64,000 nt of DNA from Candidatus Binatia bacterium. GTDB lineage: Bacteria > Desulfobacterota > Binatia > Bin18. The stretch lies in the NCBI GenBank assembly GCA_963664395.2, contig OY761159.2, positions 736,001 to 800,000 of the forward strand, read 5' to 3'. The position numbers were made by a program, and so were the translations under genes. This document shows, piece by piece, positions 38,304 to 53,186 of this stretch; positions within the stretch are counted from its first letter, which is position 1, and each line of letters starts with the position of its first letter. The notes below the pieces were generated by a model that saw only the letters and a list, made by a program, of their open reading frames with translations, made no database searches and had not been told where the DNA came from.

Positions 38304-39137
38304 TCAGTCTCTGGGCACCTCAGCATACACGCGCTGCATGGTGTCCAGATGACCCTGCGCATCCAGACCGCCCCCGAGCGTGCGTAAACATATATGGCTC
38401 AGGCCGGCCCGTCGCCACCCGGACACCCGGTCGCGCCATTCCGCCTCTCGGGGACCGACCACAGCCACGCCGGCTTCGGTGCCGATATCCTGCGGACTCC
38501 GGCCGGCCGTCTCGGCGGCGCGCAGAATATCGGCCTGTATGGCCGGGAACTCTTCCGGCGTACACAGCACAAACCAACCATCGGCCAGACATCCGACCCG
38601 ACGCCGAATGCGCGGGATGGGCACACTCTGCGCGCCTATCCAGAGCGGGATCGGCCTTTGAATCGGCAACGGATTCAGACCGGCCCCTGACACTGTGTCC
38701 CAACGTCCGTCAAAGTCTACCGTGGGTTGCGTCCAGAGTTGCTTGAGGAGGGTCATCTGCTCCTCGCAGCGAGCCCCCCGCGTCTGAAAGTCCGCACCCA
38801 GGGCGCGGTATTCCTCAGCGCTGGGACCGACGCCTATCCCGAGACGCAGACGGCCGCCGGACAGCACGTCCAACTCCGCGGCCTGCTTGGCGACCAGCAC
38901 GGTTTGGCGCGAGGGCAGAACTATAACCGAAGGCACCAACTCGATCTTCTGCGTGATGGCCGCAACATAGGCCAGCAGCGTCAGCGGCTCATGCACATAG
39001 CCGCTATCGGGCCGGAGAACCTGATCCGGGACGCGCAAATGGGTGTAGCCCAACTCGTCGGCAGTCTGGGCAAATGCCTTGATCGCTCCTAAATCTCCCT
39101 GAAGTTCTCTTACCGGCAGTGAAATCCCAATCCGCAT
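38304..39137 (-). CDS. LLM-class F420-dependent oxidoreductase
   Basis: HEPL.LL.Y.AA.T, LVAKQAAELD.LS.GRLRLG.GVG and P.PIQRPIP.WIG motifs. Confidence 0.88.
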   Translation of the reverse strand: MRIGISLPVRELQGDLGAIKAFAQTADELGYTHLRVPDQVLRPDSGYVHEPLTLLAYVAAITQKIELVPSVIVLPSRQTVLVAKQAAELDVLSGGRLRLGIGVGPSAEEYRALGADFQTRGARCEEQMTLLKQLWTQPTVDFDGRWDTVSGAGLNPLPIQRPIPLWIGAQSVPIPRIRRRVGCLADGWFVLCTPEEFPAIQADILRAAETAGRSPQDIGTEAGVAVVGPREAEWRDRVSGWRRAGLSHICLRTLGGGLDAQGHLDTMQRVYAEVPRD

Positions 39138-39653: not shown

Positions 39654-40517
39654 TTACACCCGTACGTCTTCGACCGTGCTGCGGCGCAACTCACGCCGCT
39701 GGGAAAGATCGTAACGGCGGCCGCGATGCAGCACAGCCCGGTTGTCCCAGATCACCAAATCGCCCGGACGCCAGGTATGGCGATACACAAATTGACGTTG
39801 CGTCGCATGCTCTAAAAGATCAGCGAGTAAGAGCCGCCCTTCCGGGACGGGCCGTTCCAGAATGCGAGCGGCATGCGCCCCGATAAAGAGTGTCTTCCGC
39901 CGGGAGCCCGGATGAGTACGGACGACGGGCCATTCCACGCTCGGATACTTGGCCAGATCTTCCGGCGTGTATTGCCGGTCGCCGAGCCGGACACGCGAAT
40001 GAAAGGCGGAGTGTTCGGCTATAAGCCCCTCGATCTCAGCCGTGACCTCGTCCGGCAAAGCAGCGTAGGCCGCACGCATATCAGCGAACTCGGTTTCGCC
40101 TCCTTGTTCGGGGAGGATACAAGCCAACAAGAGCGAATACTTCGCGGATGGTTGCTTGAACGAGCTGTCGCTGTGCCAGAGCTGATTGGCAAGCATAGTA
40201 ATCAGGCGAGGATCGTCCCGCGCCAGGATTTGGCTTTCGAGATCAACGTTGGAGATGTCGATCATTCCGGCCTCTTTGAATCGACTCCGCCGCTGCAACA
40301 CCTTGAGCAGCCCCATATCAACGGGACCGAGCGCGCGGGTAAACGCCATCTGCTGGGATTCATCCAGGACTTGATCGCGGAAGACCAGAACAGCGAACTC
40401 ATCCATGGCAGCCTCTATCTCGGCTGCTAAGTCTGCATCAGTTGGTTGCCGCAGGTCCAGCCCTTGGGCTTCAGCAACGAACAGTGGATGCAATGGAGAC
40501 AAGGTTAGGGTTTGCAT
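39654..40517 (-). CDS. TauD/TfdA-family dioxygenase
   Basis: LWHSDSSF, TEFADMRAAY and DNRAVLHRG motifs. Confidence 0.9.
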   Translation of the reverse strand: MQTLTLSPLHPLFVAEAQGLDLRQPTDADLAAEIEAAMDEFAVLVFRDQVLDESQQMAFTRALGPVDMGLLKVLQRRSRFKEAGMIDISNVDLESQILARDDPRLITMLANQLWHSDSSFKQPSAKYSLLLACILPEQGGETEFADMRAAYAALPDEVTAEIEGLIAEHSAFHSRVRLGDRQYTPEDLAKYPSVEWPVVRTHPGSRRKTLFIGAHAARILERPVPEGRLLLADLLEHATQRQFVYRHTWRPGDLVIWDNRAVLHRGRRYDLSQRRELRRSTVEDVRV

Positions 40518-40625
40518 GGGATTCCCCTCCTGAAGAACACCCGGCCCTGCCTGGTGGGGTCCGGGGCCGCCTTTTGCCCGACCAGGTCGAGTATGCCCGC
40601 CCGAGATCGGTTTGAGAAGCGGTCC

Positions 40626-41483
40626 CTACTCCACGTCCGTGATGACAAAATTCTGTTTATTCTGTTGCCACTCCAGTGTGACCGTCTCGCCCAGCATGGG
40701 GAAGTCCTCGACCACACATTCCCCCTCAGCGTCCAGCACAAACTCCTGTCCCAGCGTCGTCACCCGTACCGTGGCCCGGCCTAACTCTTCGCCATCCACG
40801 AACGCCACCACCTCATGTTCCCCCTCGCCCAACAGGTTCCAGTTGAACAACAGCCCAAAGCCGTTGGCCGTGTCCCCACACGCACCTTGGGTATCCAGCC
40901 GCTCGGTGCCATACGCCGCCACCTGTCGCCCGGCGGTCCCAATCGCAAGCTCGACCGTGTCGGCGTCACACACCCAGCCCGACAGCACCCCGATGCCGCT
41001 CTGAAACGAGTTCGGCCCCGGGTTTTCCAGATAGCCCTCGCCGGGGGTGCCCATCCGGTTGGTGGGGCCGGCAGGAGCCGGACCGTCCACAATCACAAAG
41101 CTCTGTTGTGTCTGTTGCCACACCAGCGTGACCGTCTCGTCCATGGTCGGGAAATCCGCGGCGGTACACGTGCCCGTCACGTCGCGCAGAAACTCCGTCC
41201 CCAACGTCGTGACCATCACGGTCGCCCGGTCGAGTTCGACTCCATCGACCAGGGCCACCACCTCATGCTCCCCGTCGCTCAACAGATTCCAGTTGAACAG
41301 CAACCCAAAGCCGTTGTCCGTGTCGCCGCATACGCTGGCTGTGTCCAGCCGCTCCGTCCCATACGCCGCCTCCTGCGGCATCCCGTTCAACTCAATCTCC
41401 ACCACCTCCGCCTCACACACCCAGCCCGAGAGAATGCCCACACCACTTTGAAACGAATCAGCGCCGGGGTTCTCCAGATAGCC
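40626..41483 (-). repeat. Two tandem ~135-aa C-terminal domains within the giant protein
   Basis: Both copies read GYLENPG..SFQSG.G.LSGWVC.A..AAYGTERLDT...CGDT.NGFGLLFNWNLL..GEHEVVA.VDG..DFP...ETVTL.WQQ..Q.FVI (~41084-41483 and 40626-41036). Confidence 0.9.
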
Positions 41484-44400
41484 CTGCACGAAGGTGATCT
41501 CGATGGCATACGTCCCCGTCGCTCCCCCCTGCCCTTGCACGGCTACGACGACTGGGCCGGCCTGCACGCGGGCACCGAGGCGCTCGTTCTGCTGTCCCCC
41601 CGTGGAGCCGGACGCCAAGGCCACGTCGTTCTGCCAGATGCTCCCGCGGGTTTGCACGCCGCCGGTGGTGTCCACAAAGACGAGACCTTGGCCGGGGGCG
41701 GTGACGGTAAAATAATCCACGTCGGCGGCCGGACAGATGGCCCCAGCAGTCACCGCAGACAACGCACTGTCAGTGGCTTGTGCAGCGGTGTCGGCGTGCA
41801 CGTCATCCTGCATACAGGCGGGAGCACCCCCGCCACCACCACCGCCGCCGCCACCGCCACGACCAGGCGGAGGCGGCGGGGGTGGCGGCTGGTCCGAGAC
41901 CGTCCCGGTCGTGTCTCTCACGACCGGCTCCGTCTTGGCCGTCTCCTGCTTGTCGGTATAGAGTGCCGTGGCCCGCAGATAGTGGCCGAGATCGGTATCC
42001 ACTGGCGTGTAGGTCGCCGTCGTGGTCAGGCTGGTAGAGAGGCAGGTCTCAGTGGTATCCGGCGAGGAGGGAAAGTCTCGGAAGGGAGACCGCGCCCAGC
42101 ACCACCGGGTAACTTCCTTCACCCCGTCCACCTGGTCGCTCACCGTCGCGGTCAGCGATGACCCGACTCGGGGCCGCGACGAGGACAGCCTCACCTCGCC
42201 CAGGGCATCCCGCACCGTGACGGTGACAGTTCGTTCACCTGTGAGGGTCTCGCCGGGAATACTCGTTGTGTCGGCGGCTTGCACCGTCACCTGATAGTCC
42301 TTGTCCGCCCTCGCCTCGTAGTCCGGTGAGTTCCGGAAGTGTAGCGCCACCCTGGTCCGGTCGATCCGGTCAATCCGGAACAGGGTGGCATCCGGCCCGG
42401 CCAGCAACCACTCCAGCTGGACATCGGCCGGATTCGTCGCCGTGTACTCGGCCACCGGCCTCGTGTCGCCCTCCGTGTAATCTTTTTGAGTATCACCACT
42501 CACCTCGGGTGGGTCGTCATCGGTGATGGTCAGCTGCACCTGCGCGGGGCTCCGGCTACCCGAAAGGTTGATCACCCGTCCACTCACCGTCACCGGCTGG
42601 TGCGCCCCGTCCACCGCGTTCCCCACTGCGGTCAGCGTCACCGTCCCGCTCGGTTCCTCTGCCGGGATCGTCAGCTCCCGCTGGCTGAGCCTGACCGCTG
42701 CCGCCCCCACCGGCACTGTCAGCCCGACCACCGTCTCGCTGCTCGACGGATGACTCAGCGTCACTGTCACGGTGGCCTCCCCGCCATCCTCAAGGATCGG
42801 GATCGAAGCATTCAACACATCCAGTCGCGTTACCGTCGGCGGACCGTCGGTGTCCGTGATGGTCAGCGTCGCCGGGGTCACCGTCAGACCCGTCACCTCG
42901 CCGCGCACCGTCACCGTCTCGGCCGGCTCATATATGTTGTCGCCCTTCGTCGTCAGGGTGAAGTCCGCCGTCCCGCTCTTCGCCCCCGCCGGGATCGTCA
43001 GCTCGGTGATGTTCGCCACCGTAAAGTCCGTATCCAGCGTGGCCGTATCCGCCGTGACCGTCACGGTCACCACAACGTCATTCTGATCACTATTCGGGTC
43101 CGGCGAGGGTTGAAACGGCGCCCCATTGAGCGTGCCGGTCACCCCCACGACCGTCCCACTACTGCTCTCTCGCACCGTCTTCGGACTCACACTCAGGGTC
43201 ACGGCCGTGGACGGACTCTCGTCATCGGTCACGGTCACGGCTACCGTCGCCGTCTCCCCATCGTAATCCCCCCCGCGTGCCGTGTGGGTCAGGGTCACGC
43301 GGTCATCCGCGTCGTCCGCGTCGTCCGCCGTGCTGACCGTCACCTTCTGCGTCGTGTTCCAGTTGGTCGGTGTGAACGTCAGGGTGGCCGAGGACGGGGT
43401 CAGGGTCACGTCCGTGCCCGCGTGCCCGGTGACCGTCAGCGTCACATTCGCCGTCGGCTCTGAGTTTAATTTTACCTCGTATTCGTCCGTGTCCTCCTCC
43501 CGGATTGACAGCGTGGCCTCACTCACCCTCACCCCGCGTTCATCGTCGTCCGTGATCGTCAGTGTGACCGGGTCTGGGGCTATCATTAGGGTATTGGTCG
43601 TCGTCCCCGTCACCGTCACTTCTTTGGTCTCCGGTCCGTCCACCTTGTTGTCCTTGGCCGTCAGCGTTACCTCGTTGCTCTCTGTGCCTCCCGGCGGGAT
43701 CGTCAGCGTGGTTCCGCTCAGCGTGTAGTGCGCCGGCATCTCTGTGAGCCGTACCTCTACTGTCCCGACACCGGCCCCACCCTGCAGTGCGGCCGTCACC
43801 TGAAGCGTCTCGCCCTCACTGATCGAATGATCCGTATCCGACAGCCGCAGCGTCACCTTTGGCGCCGCCCGCACCACGGCGGTCGTGGTCGCCGACGCCT
43901 CCTTCTCCATATCGTGGCCGTCGGTGTAGGAGGCGGTCGCCCGTAAATACTGCCCCACGTCGTCTGTCTCCGGCGTGTAGCGCGCCGTCGCTGCGCCGCT
44001 GGACGCCGCCTCAGTGATCTCGGTCCCGAGATCGGTGCGGGTGGCGGACCGGAACCACTGCCAGGAAATCTCGCTCAGGTGCCCATCGGGATCGCTCAGC
44101 GTAGCCGTCAGTGCCTGTTTTTCCTGCGGTGTGCTCGACGGCAGCAGCTCGACCATGCCCGCTTCGTCCACGTTGACGACATCGATCATTACGCGGAGGG
44201 TGGCGTCCGCCGTGGAGTCTTCTACGCCAGCGGCATTCTTGCCGTCACTGACCGACACCTCCACCTGATAGGAATGAGGCTGGCTCTCGTAGTCCAGGGC
44301 CTTCCGGAGTATCAATTCCCCGGTTCCAGGCTCAAGGAAGAACACCTCAGACCCGCGCAGGCTGTAGGTCAGGCCGGAGTAGTCCGGCGTCAGGGTGTCC

Positions 44401-47400
44401 GGGTCCGTGGCGGAAAAGTCGCCGAGGACCCGACCCGTCGGGGTGTCCTCGTCCACGTTGAGGCTGACCGGCCCGGTCACAGAGAACATCGGCGGCTCGT
44501 TCACGTCGGTGACGGTGATGGTCACGTCGATGGTGGCGTCGGCGTCCTCATCCATGTCATCCGCGTTGTTCACGTTCTTGCCGTCCCGGACCGACACGGT
44601 GACGTTGTAGGTGCTCCGGTCTTCGTAGTTCAGCGCGGTATTCGTCCGTAACTGGCCGGTGCTTTCGGTGATGGTAAAGACGGCCGCACTCGCGGCGTCC
44701 AGGCTGTAGTACAAGGTGCGGTCGTCGGGGTCGGGGGCCGTCACCGGGTTGCCGATGTTCCCCGTCTTGTTCTCCGCGATGGTACGCGTGGTCCTGGCGT
44801 CGTCGAACGCCGGCGGCTGGTTGGGCGCGGTCACCGTCACCAGCTCGCTACGCGTCGCTTCGCCACCGTCAACCACCGCTGCCACTTGATAGGTGTATCT
44901 GATGCTGCGGGTCACGGCGCGGTCGGTGTACTCACGGTCGGGGGGGTCTTCCGCAATGGCCTCCACGGTTGAGCCGGTGTTGCGGTAGACGGTGTAGGTC
45001 ACGTCCGGCGGGGGCGTCCAATGGGGCGTCACTGCCGGCCAACTCAGCTCGACGAGGCCCGTATCGGTCGCCACCGTCAGGGTCGGCCCGACTCTGAGCT
45101 GAGAGCCGAACTCCTGCCAGGTCGCCGCCCCTTGGCCGTCGAAGTCCGCCTTCAGCACCGGATACTGGCTGCTCATGCCGAAGTCCCAGGGATCATTGCC
45201 CATTGGATCGCCGTCCGGGTCCACGTTCCAGTCCGCATAAATGCTGCCGGTGGTATAGTCGGTGGGGGTTTGTAACTCCCTGGTAATCTTCGCGGTCCCC
45301 CCGGCGCTACTCGTCTGGCCCGAGGTGCGCGTGTCCCAGTAGCTGGCGGTGAACGTCGTGCTAGCCAGGTTTTCCCCGACCAAGCCTCCAAAAGCACTCC
45401 CTCTGCTTGATACTCGCCTTGATACTCGCCCCGTGGCGTAACTGGCGCGAATCGTGCCGCCAGCGAGGGACCCAAGCAGCCCCCCGGCATGGTTGTTGCC
45501 CGACACGTGTCCAGTAGCGTAGCTGGCCGTGATGTCGCCGTTCTCACCCATACGGCCGACCAGCCCGCCAATCCCGCTCGTTCCCGACACTCGCCCAGTG
45601 GCATAGCTGGTGTATATGCCACCGTTGTTCAAGCCGACTAGCCCTCCGGCATGGAAGCCACCTATGACCCGTCCCGTGGTGTAACTGGCGTGAATCTTGC
45701 CTCCGATGCCGTTGCCACCGATCAAACCCCCGACCCAGGCGGCTCCTTCTACCCGCCCGGTCGCATAGCTCCCTGTGATATCGCTATCGCTCAACCCGAC
45801 CAGCCCGCCGACATAGCGAGCCCCCGTCACTCTGATATCAAGCAGCCCGACGCGGCTGATGGCACTGGACACGCCCGCAAGGCCGAACAGGCCCACCTTG
45901 TTGGTGCTGCTCCGATCAACGAACAGATTGCTGATGGTGTAGCCGTTGCCCTCGAAGGTCGTTTCGAACCAGTTTGATCCAGCCCCGATGGGCATCCAGC
46001 CGGCCCCGGCGTTCCAGTAGGTCGTGTTATCTTCCGCATCGACCCGCCCGTCTCCGTTGGTATCGTCGTTCGTATCGACCTGACCGTCCCCGTTGGTCCC
46101 GTTGGTATCGAAGAAGTCCAGGTCCGCCATCAGCTCATACCCCTCGCACTCCCCGTTGCTACGAGCGCCGCACACCACCCGCGTCACATTGCGAAACACG
46201 GCGGCATACGCCGGCGCCCCGTCGGTTGTCGGACGGCCATCGCCGTTCAGGTCGTGCCGCATCGCATCGAGCTGCGCCAGGGTCGAAATCTCAATCAGCC
46301 CGTCATCGTCCGTGTCGTAGATCGGCATTGGGGTATTGTTCGTCAGGGTCCGGCTGGAGAGGTCGGCGGCTGCGTTACCAGCCACGTCCTGAAGCGGCGG
46401 GGTCCCTGATAGTGGTGAGTAGGCCAGGGTAACGACCAGATCGTGGGTGATATTGGAGACCAGTGTCAGTGTCACCACCGACCCGGACACCTGGACGAAG
46501 GTAATCAACGCCGTCGCGCCACCTGCCGTCACCGTGAACGCGTTCGCCCGCGGAATCGAGGTCTCGTCCAGTGCCTTGTCATACGTCAGCGTCACGGTGT
46601 CGGCGTCCACGACCGCGCCCGACATGGCCAGCAACTCCGGCGTGTCGCCATCCACGGTGTGGCCGCTGTTGGCTGCCACGGCAGCATGGGTAAAGTCCGT
46701 GGCGGGTCGGTTATCGGCGTCCTGGATCGTCCCGCCGTTCGGATTCAGGCTGTTCGCGGCGATGCTGACCCCGTCGGTGTCACTCTCGTCAGCCACCACG
46801 GTGTAGGTGCACGTCAGTACCTCGCTCGCGACGGTTTGACAAAGCGCCTGCCGCGTGTTCGCACCGACCATCAGCTCGATGCTGGGCGTGCCAGTCACCA
46901 TTATGGGCTTGGTGAAAACCACCGCTACCTTGATCTCCTCGCCTGCCGCATAGGCCACCCCTGGGTCCGAGATGATCGCCACCGTGCTGACGCTCGGTAC
47001 GCTCGCACGGTGTAAGTCTGCGTCGTTGGCGGTCAGGGTCACCGTGGCCGTGGCCTGACTGCCCACCGTCACCCCTGCGGGCAGCGGTGCGCCAAAACCC
47101 AGGATCACCGTCTCTTCGCCCTCTTGGCGGGTGTCCTGCACGGCCCTGAAGGTGAAGGTTTTTGAGGTCTGACCCGCCCCAAATGTTATGCTCGCCGGGA
47201 GGGTATAGTCGCCGGGCCAGGCGCCGTCCGTACTCGTCGCGGTGAGTGGAATGGGCATGTCGAGAGTGCGACCCGGTGCGGCATCCAGCCGCACCGTGAC
47301 CGTCACCGACCCGCCTTCGTTCACCATGTATGGCCCTACATCGAAGGCCACCTGCACGGCCCGGCCCTGCCGAAAGTTCGCCACGGTCGTGCGGGTTTCG

Positions 47401-48308
47401 TTGAGGGTCCGCGCCGCGTCGGCTGGCCCGTCCACATCGGTTGTGTTCTGGGTGCCGGACTTGCCCATGGGATCGCCGGTAGTGGGATCGGGATAGCGTT
47501 GGTTCGGATTCGAGAAACGGAGCAGGGCCGTGCCGCAGGGCGACAAGCCAGCATCGTTGCACTGATTAAAGTACGCCATAACCGTGCGCCAGCGTGCGGT
47601 CGCCGGCGCATCCGGATCGGCCGTTGTGGACCCCTCCGGGTCAAACATCTTCTGGTTTACATAGCCATACGCGTAGGGCTTCACCGTAGTGGGACATTGA
47701 GGACTGTCGGTATCGTGCTTGCAGTTTGCATACCGGTCGTGGGCAAGCCCCATGATGTGGCCCATTTCATGGGCAAAAAGGCCGGCGTGGACGGTAGAAA
47801 CGCCGAAGGCGCCGACGGCGAAGTCCGCCGACAGCACCGTCATCCTGAACGCTTGCCCACCGCCCTCCGAACGGAGGAGCATGACGATGTCCGCCCCGAC
47901 TCGGTCACGGAAGGTGTGGACGTCGTCCATATAGCCGTCCGACGGTTTCCTGAGACGATCAAGGTCTATATTCTTCCCGGTCCTATTTGCCGTGGCCGTC
48001 GCCTGGATGTATCCCTCCACCTCCTCCACGGCCACCAGTTTAATGGTCTGATTCACATCGCTGTTCGTGTAGGCCAGGTTGGTCTCCGTGACCAGGGCTT
48101 CGATCGCGGCCTCGGCCTGCTGTTTGCTGGTCCAGCCGTTGGCGGTTTTGGCCTGGGGCGTGTAGAAGACGGCCACGTCAATCACCGAGGGGTCGGTCGC
48201 CGACTGCGCGTGTACGCTCCCCCCAAACAAAAAGGGCAAAAGCGCCAGTACGGAGAGCAGCAAGCGCCGGATGGGTGGAGAGAGACTCCAGGACTCTGGC
48301 GGAGACAT
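40626..48308 (-). CDS. ~2560-aa secreted reprolysin (M12B)-like zinc metalloprotease-adhesin with Calx-beta, SwmB-like, GLUG, FN3, cadherin, PPC-like and duplicated C-terminal domains
   Basis: Signal peptide ending VHA|Q. Catalytic domain starts directly at VIDVAVFYT, with HEMGHIMGLAH and Met-turn TVMAY. Cadherin LNYE/LDYE and DVNEPP motifs, repeated GGLVG, and a poly-P/poly-G linker. Confidence 0.85.
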   Translation of the reverse strand: MSPPESWSLSPPIRRLLLSVLALLPFLFGGSVHAQSATDPSVIDVAVFYTPQAKTANGWTSKQQAEAAIEALVTETNLAYTNSDVNQTIKLVAVEEVEGYIQATATANRTGKNIDLDRLRKPSDGYMDDVHTFRDRVGADIVMLLRSEGGGQAFRMTVLSADFAVGAFGVSTVHAGLFAHEMGHIMGLAHDRYANCKHDTDSPQCPTTVKPYAYGYVNQKMFDPEGSTTADPDAPATARWRTVMAYFNQCNDAGLSPCGTALLRFSNPNQRYPDPTTGDPMGKSGTQNTTDVDGPADAARTLNETRTTVANFRQGRAVQVAFDVGPYMVNEGGSVTVTVRLDAAPGRTLDMPIPLTATSTDGAWPGDYTLPASITFGAGQTSKTFTFRAVQDTRQEGEETVILGFGAPLPAGVTVGSQATATVTLTANDADLHRASVPSVSTVAIISDPGVAYAAGEEIKVAVVFTKPIMVTGTPSIELMVGANTRQALCQTVASEVLTCTYTVVADESDTDGVSIAANSLNPNGGTIQDADNRPATDFTHAAVAANSGHTVDGDTPELLAMSGAVVDADTVTLTYDKALDETSIPRANAFTVTAGGATALITFVQVSGSVVTLTLVSNITHDLVVTLAYSPLSGTPPLQDVAGNAAADLSSRTLTNNTPMPIYDTDDDGLIEISTLAQLDAMRHDLNGDGRPTTDGAPAYAAVFRNVTRVVCGARSNGECEGYELMADLDFFDTNGTNGDGQVDTNDDTNGDGRVDAEDNTTYWNAGAGWMPIGAGSNWFETTFEGNGYTISNLFVDRSSTNKVGLFGLAGVSSAISRVGLLDIRVTGARYVGGLVGLSDSDITGSYATGRVEGAAWVGGLIGGNGIGGKIHASYTTGRVIGGFHAGGLVGLNNGGIYTSYATGRVSGTSGIGGLVGRMGENGDITASYATGHVSGNNHAGGLLGSLAGGTIRASYATGRVSRRVSSRGSAFGGLVGENLASTTFTASYWDTRTSGQTSSAGGTAKITRELQTPTDYTTGSIYADWNVDPDGDPMGNDPWDFGMSSQYPVLKADFDGQGAATWQEFGSQLRVGPTLTVATDTGLVELSWPAVTPHWTPPPDVTYTVYRNTGSTVEAIAEDPPDREYTDRAVTRSIRYTYQVAAVVDGGEATRSELVTVTAPNQPPAFDDARTTRTIAENKTGNIGNPVTAPDPDDRTLYYSLDAASAAVFTITESTGQLRTNTALNYEDRSTYNVTVSVRDGKNVNNADDMDEDADATIDVTITVTDVNEPPMFSVTGPVSLNVDEDTPTGRVLGDFSATDPDTLTPDYSGLTYSLRGSEVFFLEPGTGELILRKALDYESQPHSYQVEVSVSDGKNAAGVEDSTADATLRVMIDVVNVDEAGMVELLPSSTPQEKQALTATLSDPDGHLSEISWQWFRSATRTDLGTEITEAASSGAATARYTPETDDVGQYLRATASYTDGHDMEKEASATTTAVVRAAPKVTLRLSDTDHSISEGETLQVTAALQGGAGVGTVEVRLTEMPAHYTLSGTTLTIPPGGTESNEVTLTAKDNKVDGPETKEVTVTGTTTNTLMIAPDPVTLTITDDDERGVRVSEATLSIREEDTDEYEVKLNSEPTANVTLTVTGHAGTDVTLTPSSATLTFTPTNWNTTQKVTVSTADDADDADDRVTLTHTARGGDYDGETATVAVTVTDDESPSTAVTLSVSPKTVRESSSGTVVGVTGTLNGAPFQPSPDPNSDQNDVVVTVTVTADTATLDTDFTVANITELTIPAGAKSGTADFTLTTKGDNIYEPAETVTVRGEVTGLTVTPATLTITDTDGPPTVTRLDVLNASIPILEDGGEATVTVTLSHPSSSETVVGLTVPVGAAAVRLSQRELTIPAEEPSGTVTLTAVGNAVDGAHQPVTVSGRVINLSGSRSPAQVQLTITDDDPPEVSGDTQKDYTEGDTRPVAEYTATNPADVQLEWLLAGPDATLFRIDRIDRTRVALHFRNSPDYEARADKDYQVTVQAADTTSIPGETLTGERTVTVTVRDALGEVRLSSSRPRVGSSLTATVSDQVDGVKEVTRWCWARSPFRDFPSSPDTTETCLSTSLTTTATYTPVDTDLGHYLRATALYTDKQETAKTEPVVRDTTGTVSDQPPPPPPPPGRGGGGGGGGGGGAPACMQDDVHADTAAQATDSALSAVTAGAICPAADVDYFTVTAPGQGLVFVDTTGGVQTRGSIWQNDVALASGSTGGQQNERLGARVQAGPVVVAVQGQGGATGTYAIEITFVQGYLENPGADSFQSGVGILSGWVCEAEVVEIELNGMPQEAAYGTERLDTASVCGDTDNGFGLLFNWNLLSDGEHEVVALVDGVELDRATVMVTTLGTEFLRDVTGTCTAADFPTMDETVTLVWQQTQQSFVIVDGPAPAGPTNRMGTPGEGYLENPGPNSFQSGIGVLSGWVCDADTVELAIGTAGRQVAAYGTERLDTQGACGDTANGFGLLFNWNLLGEGEHEVVAFVDGEELGRATVRVTTLGQEFVLDAEGECVVEDFPMLGETVTLEWQQNKQNFVITDVE

Positions 48309-48961
48309 CACTGCTGGTGGTCCATCTCGGTATGGGGCTCCTCAACCCCACAGTTAAGCGGCGGCTCTTCCACCTCGCTGATGGCATACAGGCCGTCACC
48401 CACGGAGCGAATGTGATACACCTCTCCCAACGTCCGCACCGTGCCGGCCACGGCCTCCCCGTTGACCACCAGCGTCATCGTGCCGAGCGGCTCTTCGACC
48501 AGATGGCCCGCCACGGAATAGCCGCCTGAAAACGTCGGCGCGGTCTGTTCGACAATGCCCGTGACCACGACGTCGTCGAACAGATTAAAGGTCAGGGTCG
48601 TGCCCGGCGGGGGGGCCGTACTGGACTTGTCCCGGCGGGCGGACACATCTCTGGTGTGAACGCGCTGGCCGGGGGACTCCACCGCCGCCCGCGCCTGCTG
48701 GACTTGCCCCAGGTCCATGGCCACCACCCGGCTACGCAGCGTCAGCTCGGCGGCGGGGAGGGATGCCGGGGGCGGTTCAGCGACCGGCGTAAAGAGGTCG
48801 GCGGCCTGCGCGCTGCCCGACAGGCCGACCACGATCAGTAGCCAGAGCGTGACGGTGGGGCGCCACCGGGGGGCGGCGGCCCAGTGGGCTCCCAGAATGT
48901 CATCAATCCTATACATTGCTTCCCTCGCCGCCTGGGACCATACACCATTGCGTCGCGTCAT
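48308..48961 (-). CDS. Stand-alone secreted reprolysin pro-domain with a cysteine-switch motif
   Basis: RBS ggagg, signal peptide ending SAQA|A, beta-rich body (L.FNLFDD, G.V.T....Y.I) and C-terminal PLNCGV. Stop overlaps the protease start (TGATG). Alternative start at 48916. Confidence 0.75.
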   Translation of the reverse strand: MTRRNGVWSQAAREAMYRIDDILGAHWAAAPRWRPTVTLWLLIVVGLSGSAQAADLFTPVAEPPPASLPAAELTLRSRVVAMDLGQVQQARAAVESPGQRVHTRDVSARRDKSSTAPPPGTTLTFNLFDDVVVTGIVEQTAPTFSGGYSVAGHLVEEPLGTMTLVVNGEAVAGTVRTLGEVYHIRSVGDGLYAISEVEEPPLNCGVEEPHTEMDHQQ

Positions 48962-49191
48962 ATACCTCCAAAATGGGAGGAAATTTACATATAGGCGGCA
49001 GGTTCCACGGGAGGGGAGTCCCGTGGCGCGGCGGGCACGTGCGCGGGGAGACGCTCCGCGTGTCACCGCGCTACCAGGCAGGCCCCGCTCATCCGACGCA
49101 ACGTATTGATTCTTCCTGCCTCAGCGTTTACGATTCGGACACATTTTTTCCGCTGTAGCCCTGCATAACCATTTCGCAAAGGAGTGAACTC

Positions 49192-51117
49192 ATGGCGACC
49201 GCCAGCCGCATTGATGCCATCCCCCTGCCACCGCTGGAGGTCTCTTTCGACCCCATCACTTTCAGTGTGATCCGCAACCGTTTTGAAGCCATCGGTCAGG
49301 AGATGACCCTGGCGATGGAGCAGACGGCCTGGACCTCGGTCATCGCCCTGGCGCGCGACTACTCGTGCATGATCTACGACGCCCATTCGAGCGGTCCGCG
49401 GCAGGTCACCATGGCCGATTGCCTGCCCATCCACTGCAACAGCATTCGGACCCTGCTGATGGAAATCGTCGCCGTATTCAAAGACGAAATCCACGACGGC
49501 GACGTGTATATGTCGAACGATCCCTATCGGGGCAACACCCACATCCCGGACCTGGTAACGGCCCAGCCGGTCTTCGTTGACGGCGAGCAGGTGTTCTGGA
49601 CGGTGGCGCGCGGCCATCAGCTCGATACCGGTGCCATCGAAGCGTCGAGCATCGTGCCTGCGGCAAAGACCATCTTCCAGGAAGGCATCGTCATTCCGCC
49701 GACCAAGCTGATCGACCGCGGCGTCGAACGCCACGATATCGTCGAGCTGTATCTCTCCAATGTACGCTACCGGGACGCGCTGCACGGAGACCTGCGCGCC
49801 CAACTCGGCGCCTGCGGCGTGGCCCGCAAGGGCCTGATCGAACTGTGCCAGCAGTACGGTCGCGATGAGGTGATGCGCTATAGCGACGGTCTCATGGACT
49901 ACGCCGACCAGCGCGCGACAGAGGAGTTTCTGAAAATTCCCGACGGCGTCTACCACGGCGAGACCTGGACGGACACCGACGGCAACGGCGCCACGGACAT
50001 TCCGATTCGAGCCACGATCACCAAGAAGGGCGCGGATATCCACGTGCACTACAGCGGCGGGCCGCCGTCCACCGGCTCGTTCAACGGGACCTATGCGGTC
50101 ATGATGGCGACCTCGACCATCCCCTTCCTGTACTACATTGATTCGGACATTCCGCATAACCACGGCGTGCTACAACACATCAGCGCCGACGCCGACGACA
50201 ACACCATCTGCCTGGCCAAGTGGCCGGCTGCGGTTGCAGGCGCAACCCAGAATCCGGCCGACCCCATGCACGACGTCATCAATATCGCCATGGCCGAAGC
50301 CATTCCCGATCGTGTTCCTGCCGGCGGGGCGCATACCGCCCACATCCCGAACTTCAACGGGGTCGATTCGAGAACCGGCAAGGAGTGGGGCTGCATGCTG
50401 TTCAACAGCGGCGGCGGCCAGGGCGCGGCAAAGGACGCCGATGGCTGGCCGGTCCTGTGTACCATTGCCGGCATGGGCGGGCTCACCTCGGCCTCGGTCG
50501 AGCAGTTGGAGCTGCTGTATCCGCTCCGCGTCGATCAGAATGAAATCGAGACCGACGCCCTGGGCATGGGGAAATGGATCGGCGGCCCCGGACTGCGCAC
50601 CTGCTATCGCCCGATCGCCGGAGATATGGAATGCGTCGGCTTTGGCGAGGGCTTGAAGAACCCGCCGCACGGGGTGAACGGCGGCACCATGAGCCCAGGC
50701 GGCGGCATTTATATCGAGCACGCGGACGGCCGGCGGACCTTTACCTCTTCCGCGGGACAGCTTCTGATTCGCGAAGGCGAGACCTGGAATGGCGTGTCCG
50801 CGGGCGGCGGCGGCTGGGGCAATCCGCTCGACCGCGACCCGGAACAAGTGCGCCGCGACCTGCGGGACGAGTGGATCAGCGCTGACGCCGCCCGCAATGT
50901 GTTCGGCATAGTCGTCAAGGACGATCTTGAGCGCAGCCTCGACGTTGCCGCAACCGAGCAACTCCGAGCCGAACTGCGCAAGACCGAGCGCCCGATGATC
51001 GAACCGACCATCCCCGCCGCGGGGACCTGGACCAAGGAGAACATGCGCCCCGGCGACCGCTATCTCGAAGCCCCGACTATCGCCCGGAACTTCAGCGACA
51101 TGCCGAAGGAGGCGTAA
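49192..51117 (+). CDS. Hydantoinase B/5-oxoprolinase-family subunit
   Basis: DPITF.VI, SNDPY.GNTH.PD, GHQLD.G, EQLE..YP, G...GGPG and GGGGWGNP motifs. Confidence 0.9.
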   Translation: MATASRIDAIPLPPLEVSFDPITFSVIRNRFEAIGQEMTLAMEQTAWTSVIALARDYSCMIYDAHSSGPRQVTMADCLPIHCNSIRTLLMEIVAVFKDEIHDGDVYMSNDPYRGNTHIPDLVTAQPVFVDGEQVFWTVARGHQLDTGAIEASSIVPAAKTIFQEGIVIPPTKLIDRGVERHDIVELYLSNVRYRDALHGDLRAQLGACGVARKGLIELCQQYGRDEVMRYSDGLMDYADQRATEEFLKIPDGVYHGETWTDTDGNGATDIPIRATITKKGADIHVHYSGGPPSTGSFNGTYAVMMATSTIPFLYYIDSDIPHNHGVLQHISADADDNTICLAKWPAAVAGATQNPADPMHDVINIAMAEAIPDRVPAGGAHTAHIPNFNGVDSRTGKEWGCMLFNSGGGQGAAKDADGWPVLCTIAGMGGLTSASVEQLELLYPLRVDQNEIETDALGMGKWIGGPGLRTCYRPIAGDMECVGFGEGLKNPPHGVNGGTMSPGGGIYIEHADGRRTFTSSAGQLLIREGETWNGVSAGGGGWGNPLDRDPEQVRRDLRDEWISADAARNVFGIVVKDDLERSLDVAATEQLRAELRKTERPMIEPTIPAAGTWTKENMRPGDRYLEAPTIARNFSDMPKEA

Positions 51118-51119
51118 AC

Positions 51120-53186
51120 ATGGGGCATCGAGTCGGCATCGATATCGGCGGCACCTTCACAGATGTAGTCCTGCTGCGCGACGACGGGACATTCCATGTC
51201 TATAAAGAAGACTCGACTCCCGACCAGCCGCTGCTGGCAATTACGCGGGGGCTCAGCGGGCTGGCCGAGGAAGCCGGGACCACGGTCGCAGAGCTTTTGC
51301 GCGAGACGGAATTTCTGGTCCATGGCCAGACCATGGCAACCAATGCGCTGATCCAGCGCAACGGTCCGGTCATCGGACTGCTGTGCACCCAGGGCTTTCG
51401 CGACATCATGTATCTGGGCCGCGGCGGCAAGCCCGAGCGGTTCAACATCCATCTCCAGAAGCCCGAGGACTTTATTCCCCGCTATTTGCGCCTGGGCATT
51501 CCCGAACGCATCAGCGCGGACGGCTCCGAAATCCTGCCGCTCGACGAAGAGGCCATTCGCAACGCGGCCCGGCGCTTCGGTGCCCACGGCGTCAAAGCGG
51601 TTGCCGTTGCGTACTTGTGGTCCATCGTCGATTCGAGCCACGAAAAGCGCACCGCCGAGATCGTGCGCGAGGAGCTGCCCGGCGTCGATGTGCTGTGCTC
51701 CTGTGATGTCCTGCCCGAGATTCGGGAATGGGAGCGCACCTCGGCAACCGTACTGTCGGCCTATATCGCGCCCATCATCGGCGACTATCTGCGCGCCTTT
51801 GAAAAAGAGATGGCAGCCGGCGGCCTGCCCCACCCGCCGCAGATCATGCAGGTCAACGGCGGCTGTGCCTCGGTTGAGGACCTTTTGGCGCGGCCTGTCA
51901 ACGCGGTGGCCTCGGGTCCCGCGGCTGGCCCGGCGGCGGGTGCGCACTACGCCTCGGATACCAAAGCCCCCGACCGGCTGATCATTATCGACATGGGCGG
52001 AACCAGCTTCGACGTTTGCATGCTGCGCGACAGCGAACCGGTCATGTCAACCGATATTCGGGTCGCACATCAGCCCATCGGGGTGAACGGGGTCGAGGTG
52101 CTGTCGATCGGCGCCGGCGGCGGCTCCATTGCCTGGCTCGACAGCGGCAAGGCGCTGCGGGTCGGGCCGCAGAGCGCGGGTTCCCAGCCGGGGCCGGCCT
52201 GTTACGGCCGGGGTGGTCGTGCGCCCGCAGTCACCGACGCCAACCTGGCCGTCGGGCGAATGTCGTCCGGGGCGTTTCTGGGCGGGCGGCGTTCTCTCAG
52301 CGAGCACCTGGCGCAGCGAGCCATTGCCGAGCATATTGCCACGCCGCTGGGGCTGTCGGTCCGCGAGGCCGCGGCCGGTATCCTGACCATTGTGAACTCG
52401 AATATGGCCTCGGCCATCCGGGCGGTCTCGATTGAGCGCGGCATCGATCCCCGCGACTATGTCATGGTCGCGGGCGGTGGGGCCGGTGGCCTGCACGCGG
52501 CCGAGCTGGCCCGTATGCTTGAGATCGGCGAGGTGCTGATTCCGCGTTCCGCGGGCGGCCTGTGCGCGTTCGGCATGGCGGTCACCCCGGTGCGGCACGA
52601 CTACGTGCGCCTGCACCACTGCTATACAAATCGGCCGGACGCGGCCACGAGCATCGCTCAGGTGTTTGACGAGCTGATCGCCCAGGGTGGCTCCCATCTT
52701 AAGGAGGAGGGCTTCAAGCCCGAGGAGATTCGTTTTGCCCGGCATCTTGAAGGACGCTATCCGGGTCAGGTGCACAACCTGACTGTGCCGCTGCCCGAAG
52801 GACCGATTGACGCCGATCTCTTGCGGCGACTCGAAGCCGACTTTCATGACGAGCACGAGCGGCGCTTTACCTATTCGATGCGCGACCAGCCCATCGAGTG
52901 CCTGCACTGGCGCATCGCCGCCACGGGCAACCGACCTGCTCCTGAAGGACGGCTGGCCACGCAGTCCGGGGGTGGGTCAAAATCCACCAGCCGGCGCAGG
53001 GCCTATATGGCCGGGGTCAATGCCGAGGTGGAAACCGAGATTTATCAGGGCGACGCGCTGGCGGCGGGTGACCGGCTGACCGGCCCGGCCATCGTTGAGT
53101 TCGCCACAACCACGGTGGTCGTCAATCCGGATGACCGACTGACCGTCCAGGCCGACGGCAGCTCTCTGCTGACGATTGCCCTCTAA
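51120..53186 (+). CDS. Hydantoinase A/5-oxoprolinase-family ATP-binding subunit
   Basis: GIDIGGTFTD, HG.T.ATNA, SGPAAG, DMGGTSFD, IGAGGGS and GGAGGLH motifs. Confidence 0.92.
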   Translation: MGHRVGIDIGGTFTDVVLLRDDGTFHVYKEDSTPDQPLLAITRGLSGLAEEAGTTVAELLRETEFLVHGQTMATNALIQRNGPVIGLLCTQGFRDIMYLGRGGKPERFNIHLQKPEDFIPRYLRLGIPERISADGSEILPLDEEAIRNAARRFGAHGVKAVAVAYLWSIVDSSHEKRTAEIVREELPGVDVLCSCDVLPEIREWERTSATVLSAYIAPIIGDYLRAFEKEMAAGGLPHPPQIMQVNGGCASVEDLLARPVNAVASGPAAGPAAGAHYASDTKAPDRLIIIDMGGTSFDVCMLRDSEPVMSTDIRVAHQPIGVNGVEVLSIGAGGGSIAWLDSGKALRVGPQSAGSQPGPACYGRGGRAPAVTDANLAVGRMSSGAFLGGRRSLSEHLAQRAIAEHIATPLGLSVREAAAGILTIVNSNMASAIRAVSIERGIDPRDYVMVAGGGAGGLHAAELARMLEIGEVLIPRSAGGLCAFGMAVTPVRHDYVRLHHCYTNRPDAATSIAQVFDELIAQGGSHLKEEGFKPEEIRFARHLEGRYPGQVHNLTVPLPEGPIDADLLRRLEADFHDEHERRFTYSMRDQPIECLHWRIAATGNRPAPEGRLATQSGGGSKSTSRRRAYMAGVNAEVETEIYQGDALAAGDRLTGPAIVEFATTTVVVNPDDRLTVQADGSSLLTIAL

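Follow-up and report, generated by a model that had tools for sequence, protein, structure and literature searches.

According to excerpts of two papers (PMC4334185, PMC4222646), bamI of Pseudomonas aeruginosa (PA2782) lies upstream of and is co-transcribed with mep72 (PA2783), whose product has a signal sequence. The first of these excerpts (PMC4334185) reports that BamI forms a complex with Mep72 in vitro and relieves Mep72 toxicity in E. coli; its authors likened BamI to AprI and described it as partly unfolded. In Acinetobacter, the excerpted text of PMC7542363 and PMC6299215 describes CpaB as a membrane-bound chaperone encoded beside CpaA, an adamalysin-like substrate of type II secretion, and states that the C-terminal tail of CpaB sits in the catalytic site of CpaA, in a zymogen-like manner (PMC7542363). 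The pro-domain of ADAM33 was predicted, in an excerpt of PMC7612213, to be a lipocalin-like barrel with the switch cysteine in a post-barrel extension. Here we describe a two-gene locus from a Candidatus Binatia bacterium, contained in a stretch of 64,000 nucleotides of contig OY761159.2 (the window), in which a small, apparently exported protein is encoded directly before a secreted protease-adhesin. We regard the small protein as a likely detached pro-domain, which in trans would serve its cognate reprolysin-like protease-adhesin as an inhibitor-chaperone.

Both genes are on the minus strand. The small gene (48308 to 48961) is an open reading frame (ORF) of 217 amino acids, with an alternative start at 48916 that gives 202 amino acids. 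The protease gene (40626 to 48311) encodes 2561 amino acids in which Pfam recognised Reprolysin_3/4/5, GLUG, Cadherin (three stretches) and immunoglobulin-like domains. The junction between the two reads cagcagTGATGtct, and the stop/start overlap (GTGATG, 48308 to 48311, minus strand) is such that the TGA of the small gene overlaps either an ATG at 48308, with which it has its A in common, or a GTG at 48311, where ORF calling placed the protease start. The nearest homologues of the small protein (seven clusters, among the matches listed) are 93 to 99% identical to it, have 202 amino acids and give 93% query coverage, which agrees with a start at M16 (48916). The true start may be 48916 or 48961, and the predicted signal peptide is kept in either case.

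The N-terminus of the small protein reads as a putative export signal (amino acids 1 to 53, 48803 to 48961, minus strand). It is basic and hydrophobic, and residues 35 to 53 form a hydrophobic run up to SAQA/AD, where the slash marks the presumed cleavage site. A hydrophobic run of about 13 residues precedes SAQA/A and looks cleavable, although the protein may instead keep a CpaB-like membrane anchor. The AQxADLF junction is present in the consensus of the small-protein alignment (A1). The protease has its own predicted signal peptide (amino acids 1 to 35, 48207 to 48311, minus strand), which ends in RRLLLSVLALLPFLFGGSVHA before Q and then S; across the predicted cleavage site the sequence runs from IRRLLLSVLALLPFLFGGSVHA to QSATDPSVIDVAVFYT. 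The reprolysin-like catalytic domain follows at amino acids 42 to 316 (47364 to 48188, minus strand). Pfam matches to Reprolysin_3, Reprolysin_4 and Reprolysin_5 begin at residue 42 or 43, with scores of 41.7, 41.2 and 39.5 bits against cut-offs of 22.4, 22 and 27, respectively, and the Reprolysin_4 match covers residues 42 to 264. This domain begins only about 6 residues after the predicted cleavage site, which leaves the protease with no pro-region in cis.

The zinc-binding motif HEMGHIMGLAHD occupies amino acids 181 to 192 (H181, E182, H185, H191 and D192; 47736 to 47771, minus strand). In an alignment of 88 sequences (A2), the positions of E182, H185 and H191 never vary; near-invariant are H181, D192 and the Met-turn residue M245 in TVMAY (amino acids 243 to 247; M245 codon 47577 to 47579, minus strand). 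The HEXXHXXGXXHD motif, the Met-turn and Pfam scores over the gathering cut-offs identify the protein as a reprolysin-like metzincin, and a profile of the catalytic domain matched snake-venom metalloproteinases, ADAMs, fragilysin and CpaA in the PDB. The original prediction had reported the small ORF, both signal peptides, the beta-rich body, the PLNCGV tail, the stop/start overlap and the missing pro-region, and it was correct in every one of these details.

The genome contains four copies of the small-protein domain, distributed over three split pairs, this locus included, and one fused paralogue. The two further split pairs have the same stop/start overlap and an apparent signal peptide on the downstream protease, and their small proteins have the tails PPLNCEV and PPLDCGA. 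The fused paralogue is organised as signal peptide, small-protein domain, linker and catalytic domain (HEIGHLMGLRHD). Its amino acids 29 to 177 align with residues 50 to 199 of the small protein at 48% identity, and amino acids 235 to 499 align with residues 42 to 327 of the protease at 43% identity, in the same order as in the split pair. These alignments show homology between the small protein and the N-terminal domain of fused forms. The 57-residue linker of the fused paralogue corresponds to the 18 tail residues and 41 N-terminal residues of the split pair. As the fused paralogue is collinear with both products, the break in the split pair falls in the linker, the downstream half of which has become a signal peptide. 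The motif around the cysteine differs among the paralogues, which have the cysteine alone in common.

Relatives of the small protein numbered 889 at E ≤ 1e-3 in a search of 1.84 billion cluster representatives, and the best 150 of the 889 comprised stand-alone proteins of about 130 to 280 amino acids and long proteins. Among nine long homologues that were scanned, the domain was directly N-terminal to a Reprolysin domain in six and C-terminal to a region of leucine-rich repeats (LRR) plus Reprolysin in two; one had no protease match. A family profile found 80 loci in reference genomes of Binatia, Acidobacteriota, Chloroflexota, Methylococcaceae and others, which were tallied with hidden Markov models. 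The domain was fused before the catalytic domain in 31 of these loci, and in 24 it was split from a protease gene lying downstream. A protease was absent from the flanks of about 3 kb in 17 loci, a separate protease gene lay upstream in 4, the domain followed the catalytic domain in one frame in 3, and the protease was on the opposite strand in 1. Under a first-start rule, stop and start overlap by 1 or 4 bases in 7 of the 24 split loci, and the downstream-protease N-termini that were printed for related split loci resemble signal peptides. Recurrence of the two-gene layout, which the original prediction had asked about, is therefore seen both in the two additional pairs of this genome and in 24 of 80 related loci.

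Several of these arrangements deserve comment. In the closest reference-genome relative (L015, a Candidatus Binatia metagenome-assembled genome) the 4-base overlap and the signal peptide are again present; by the first-start rule its downstream protease frame is open for no more than 120 amino acids, yet a catalytic-domain match follows, and there may be a frameshift or pseudogene in that assembly. The placement after LRR-plus-Reprolysin in one frame (P0227, P0238; L071, L074, L080) is often accompanied by a WRCGT-type cysteine tail, and because some relatives carry the domain C-terminally the module can apparently work from either end of the protease. The four loci with the small gene downstream have the order inferred for cpaA-cpaB. 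The protease-less loci are mostly from Vicinamibacterales, where the small gene has a cysteine-less LPPLGEP tail, and include L036, L040, L047, L049, L051, L057, L059, L060, L063, L066, L067, L075 and L078. The products of such genes may be inhibitors of an orphan kind, or may have partner proteases whose genes lie elsewhere.

Seventy-five domain sequences, with six loci excluded for too short a match, were placed in a quick maximum-likelihood tree with a midpoint root only. Its basal clades were all-fused, and one clade of 55 rows (Shimodaira-Hasegawa-like approximate likelihood ratio test, 96) took in the split and orphan forms. At least seven changes between fused and unfused states are needed on this tree, and its topology suggests that fusion is the ancestral state. 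In a survey of the genus with the small protein as query, matches turned up in 5 of the 24 other species and in none of 16 genomes from outside the genus. This patchy distribution fits accessory or transferred genes.

The body of the small protein (amino acids 54 to 199; 48365 to 48802, minus strand) contains the motifs NLFDD, TFSGGY, LVVNG and VxGTVR, which are invariant or near-invariant in the family alignments. An AlphaFold2 model had a mean predicted local distance difference test (pLDDT) value of 79.6, with values of 95 to 98 over residues 121 to 200. The predicted fold consists of a strand-helix unit (74 to 95), a low-confidence loop, a barrel-like seven-strand sheet (122 to 197) and the tail after the last strand. 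Foldseek found nothing in the PDB at E ≤ 1e-3. The top matches were six chains of 6o38 (CpaB), with E-values from 1.3e-3 to 6.3e-3, a probability of 1.00 and target-normalised template modelling (TM) scores of 0.61 to 0.65 (0.64 for the best match). ADAM17 zymogen chains formed a second group (E 0.06 to 0.12, probability 0.69 to 0.96), and lipocalins and fatty-acid-binding proteins came lower, with probabilities of 0.07 to 0.41 for most. The fused paralogue was modelled with a predicted TM score of 0.81 and a disordered linker (186 to 231). Its best matches were structures of ADAM17 as a zymogen or as pro-domain plus protease (E 8e-9 to 2e-8, 359 to 449 columns, root-mean-square deviation (rmsd) 8 to 13.5 Å), followed by CpaA (241 columns, rmsd 3.4 Å) and then by structures of catalytic domains only; profragilysin aligned with the model over more than 320 columns.

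The complex was predicted from protease amino acids 36 to 335, small-protein amino acids 54 to 217 and zinc. Scores of 0.83, 0.83 and 0.85 were obtained, compared with 0.21 for the best control; 58 of 80 solved complexes attained that mark, as did 2 of 110 mismatched pairs. Agreement between runs extended to at least 78% of contacts, and partner pLDDT was at least 77. The confident part of the predicted interface is formed by the small-protein barrel on protease helix 61 to 83. The protease side also includes a strand at 150 to 156 and residues 175 to 178, 181, 182, 185, 190, 191, 244, 247 and 248. As the original prediction had anticipated, the model puts the small-protein tail (198 to 208) against zinc-site residues, the predicted interface including H181, E182, H185, H191 and the Met-turn region (244 to 248).

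The tail itself (amino acids 200 to 217; 48311 to 48364, minus strand) reads EVEEPPLNCGVEEPHTEMDHQQ and has a His- and acid-rich end, PHTEMDHQQ. It carries C204 within PPLNCGV (codon 48350 to 48352), the sole cysteine of the small protein, and as the only cysteine of an exported protein it suits a free thiol ligand rather than a disulfide. We aligned the tails of the 141 of 151 family representatives whose match reached query residue 195. A cysteine was present in the tail window of 69 of the 141, namely in 52 of 85 proteins shorter than 300 amino acids (the metagenomic ones of which may include fragments), 12 of 46 N-terminal or internal fusions and 5 of 10 C-terminal placements. A CGV motif like that of PKMCGV, on which the original prediction had drawn, is not conserved; what is conserved is the cysteine alone, in about half of the family. 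Stand-alone proteins of the cysteine type end in a conserved PHxExDHxH followed by the stop (48311 to 48340 here, amino acids 208 to 217), a motif that fused forms lack. It may be a second metal-binding site or reflect constraint from the overlapping start region of the protease.

On the reading that we favour, the two genes would constitute a translationally coupled operon for a zinc protease-adhesin and its own pro-domain. The small protein would be exported by its own signal peptide and the protease separately. In the periplasm the small-protein barrel would dock on the catalytic domain, with the C-terminal tail in the active-site cleft and Cys204 probably ligating the catalytic zinc. Docking would keep the protease latent, and probably aid its folding, until secretion or surface display. 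A zymogen would thus have been cut in its linker during evolution, the downstream part of the linker giving rise to the second signal peptide, and the small protein would function as an inhibitor-chaperone of the BamI/CpaB type in trans. We infer the Cys-Zn ligation, the inhibition, the chaperone role and the release step; the earlier proposal that a pro-domain with its cysteine switch works as a separate co-exported protein in trans gained support from each computational test made, namely from the collinear fused paralogue with 48% identity, the matches to ADAM17 and CpaB and the controls of the complex prediction.

Several results weigh against this interpretation. Co-transcription is not documented by the RNA-library contigs (X17), which cover 47900 to 48098 and 48461 to 48700, with the junction outside this coverage. 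The small protein had no Pfam match at E ≤ 1, in a library without the PF27177 model, and no NCBIfam match; the 92 members of alignment A1 gave chance-level matches only (best E 0.015), and the family profile found no PDB chain at E ≤ 10. For the small protein alone the structural resemblance to ADAM17 is weak (E 0.06 to 0.12), and for the fused model it comes with a high rmsd (8 to 13.5 Å). The complex is a predicted model whose output lists interface residues, and ligation of zinc by Cys204 goes beyond it; as solved look-alikes exist (CpaA-CpaB and the ADAM17 zymogen), its passing the controls may partly reflect likeness to them. Seventy-two of the 141 tail representatives lack the cysteine and have tails of the LPPLGEP(L/I) type instead, so that the tail cysteine is the mark of a subfamily and inessential to the family. 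Finally, as the small gene has no protease within 3 kb in 17 of 80 loci, the module is not always a cognate partner.

The small protein could instead be mainly a secretion or folding chaperone, as CpaB is for CpaA, that is needed for stability and export and occupies the active site only incidentally. CpaB is the best structural match, and the largest and most confident predicted contacts are those of the barrel with helix 61 to 83 rather than those of the tail with the cleft. This explanation is compatible with a detached pro-domain, the CpaB tail blocking the site as well according to the excerpt of PMC7542363. We nevertheless find it unlikely as the main role, because the N-terminus here has a cleavage-like AQA/A end and not a long anchor, the tail cysteine is conserved among near relatives, and in fused forms the module occupies the place of a zymogen pro-domain. 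Still more improbable, in our view, is a lipocalin-like periplasmic protein that binds a ligand or serves as an adaptor, became an operon partner by chance and does not regulate the protease. The structural matches to lipocalins and fatty-acid-binding proteins and the 17 loci with no nearby protease would fit such a protein, but those matches are of low probability, 31 + 3 of 80 loci and eight of the nine long homologues scanned carry the domain in fusion with a reprolysin-like catalytic domain, and the complex prediction passed its controls.

The presence of a fused paralogue in the same genome, with a linker that coincides with the split point, also raised the question of whether one fused zymogen gene lies behind the split, which would then be an artefact or the result of recent pseudogenising mutation. 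This is contradicted by the data and has almost no probability in our estimation. Contigs of three studies span 48308 to 48311 with no inserted or deleted letters (X1 record 5, 48009 to 48700, 0 differences; X4 record 16, 48054 to 48463; X5 record 21, 48009 to 48434). Contig set X1 may be the source sample. In the genome there are three independent split pairs, in all of which the downstream protein has a signal peptide; moreover, 24 of 80 related loci are split, seven clusters consist of 202-residue proteins that are 93 to 99% identical, and the C-terminal PHxExDHxH is part of the A1 consensus. The view of the original prediction that neither a frameshift nor an assembly error produced the two ORFs thus holds.

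A detached pro-domain at this locus would provide a clean natural case of one zymogen divided between two genes, in a genome that holds the fused version beside the split one. The locus allows one to ask whether a cysteine-switch pro-domain can work in trans, and what ends latency in the absence of a peptide bond to be cut. An evolutionary identity as detached pro-domains is also suggested for P. aeruginosa BamI and Acinetobacter CpaB. For annotation, hundreds of 'hypothetical' genes of 190 to 210 amino acids in Binatia, Acidobacteriota and relatives could be named as partners of surface proteases. More tentatively, and with somewhat more doubt than conviction, we suggest that the whole BamI_lipocalin family represents a zymogen pro-domain with a history of repeated separation from, and renewed fusion to, reprolysin-like proteases, in N-terminal, C-terminal, coupled-gene and orphan forms. 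It would have two plugs, a trans cysteine switch (PPLxCGV) and a cysteine-less acidic LPPLGEP tail; latency of the split forms would be ended by dissociation or thiol chemistry and not by proteolysis, and the orphans would be free inhibitors of several proteases.

That one inhibitor serves several paralogous proteases had been put forward for this genome. We rejected this idea here, as each of the three split proteases has an adjacent small gene of its own. Outside this genome several proteases per inhibitor may be possible, by way of the protease-less genes of Vicinamibacterales. The literature searched, which left out supplements and the CpaA-CpaB structure paper, contained no description of BamI/CpaB-type partners as detached pro-domains, of fused and split forms in one genome or of a trans cysteine switch. 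Nothing relevant to a bacterial metzincin pro-domain encoded by a separate gene was found among titles and the beginnings of abstracts.

The C-terminal part of the protease consists of a Pro/Gly linker followed by two tandem modules of about 135 amino acids (GYLENPG...SGWVC...), which a genome search located at 40629 to 41486 (41085 to 41486 and 40629 to 41042, minus strand). In this 5-Mb genome the module (GYLENPG..SFQSG.G.LSGWVC...LEWQQ..QNF.I) was matched 139 times at E ≤ 1e-5, mostly at the C-termini of open frames of 250 to 4118 amino acids. It had no Pfam match, and Atlas returned just 'hypothetical' clusters, of which some had a weak Big_7. The module has the look of a lineage-specific C-terminal unit for sorting or anchoring, or of a lectin, that scores of secreted proteins share.

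The surroundings of the operon are an ordinary metabolic context with no adjacent secretion-system genes. Hydantoinase/oxoprolinase B and A genes (49192 to 53186, plus strand) are divergent from it, and downstream of the protease the minus strand carries genes for a TauD-family dioxygenase (39654 to 40517) and a luciferase-like monooxygenase (38304 to 39137). As the flanking genes are unrelated, we take the operon to consist of two genes. A scan of 40300 to 49300 for promoters and terminators gave one promoter-like site, on the wrong strand, and zero terminator-like sites, both at or below the expectation from shuffled sequence.

AprI inserts an N-terminal trunk, rather than a C-terminal tail, into the protease cleft. 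The small protein resembles AprI/Inh of serralysins in being a small, putatively exported beta-barrel protein encoded beside a metzincin, with the cell protected before secretion (a comparison made in the excerpt of PMC4334185), but it belongs to a separate family. The resemblance to the cis pro-domains of M12B proteases lies in a predicted barrel and an extension with the unpaired Cys204 after the last strand, in the best matches of the fused-paralogue model, which are ADAM17 zymogens across both domains, and in the HEXXHXXGXXHD motif and Met-turn of the protease. Unlike those pro-domains, the small protein is a separate gene product with its own signal peptide rather than covalently N-terminal, as the domain is in the fused paralogue and in 31 of 80 loci, and the split form needs no furin-type cleavage. 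PPLNCGV also differs from the animal PKMCGV, and the small protein has no Pfam match at E ≤ 1, the animal propeptide family included, so that by sequence it falls outside that family.

In common with CpaB-CpaA, the pair has a partner encoded separately from an adamalysin-like protease; in the PDB no fold matches the small protein better than that of CpaB, and CpaA is among the best fold and profile matches of the catalytic domain. It differs in that the small-protein family has no sequence similarity to any PDB chain, in that CpaB is anchored by an N-terminal transmembrane domain (PMC7542363, excerpt) whereas the small protein has a cleavage-like AQA/A, and in gene order, the small gene being first here while the plasmid name pWH-cpaA-his-cpaB in the same excerpt suggests cpaA then cpaB.

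A further likeness is to BamI-Mep72. PF27177.1, which Atlas names BamI_lipocalin, matched 36 of 120 listed homologues of the small protein (56 to 78% identical) and none of the nearest (93 to 99%), and an Atlas cluster nearby is named 'biofilm-associated metzincin protease inhibitor BamI'. In an Atlas feature search with the small protein a BamI cluster ranked 5, with a score of 0.92 and 165 shared features, which we treat as a lead only. Among ten clusters of NCBI-sourced homologues, nine are unnamed and the tenth is called 'zinc-dependent metalloprotease'. By way of the PF27177.1 labels of its homologues, the small protein is a candidate relative of P. aeruginosa BamI. As at bamI-mep72, the small gene immediately precedes, in the same orientation, the gene for a secreted reprolysin-like metzincin that lacks a pro-domain, and the NCBIfam Mep72 model (NF052434) begins at the catalytic domain, as does the protease here. 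Its positions 1 to 234 matched protease amino acids 43 to 316 with 59 bits, far below the equivalog cut-off of 645, and all four catalytic-domain copies in the genome were under this cut-off. The genes overlap here and are 78 bp apart in PAO1 (PMC4222646, excerpt), and the protease has 2561 amino acids with GLUG, cadherin and other domains, compared with 599 amino acids and carbohydrate-binding domains in Mep72 (PMC4334185, excerpt).

The arrangement has less novelty than was originally assumed, since relatives are already BamI_lipocalin in Pfam and BamI-Mep72 is a published operon of upstream inhibitor and protease. As close homologues carry PF27177 BamI_lipocalin, we place the split pair, as a new member, with the known BamI/Mep72 kind of inhibitor-chaperone in trans, and the proposed mechanism, being of the BamI/CpaB kind, opens no new class. 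The excerpts of PMC4334185 and PMC4222646 do not describe BamI as a detached pro-domain. What the present locus adds to this kind is a partner that looks like a detached cysteine-switch pro-domain.

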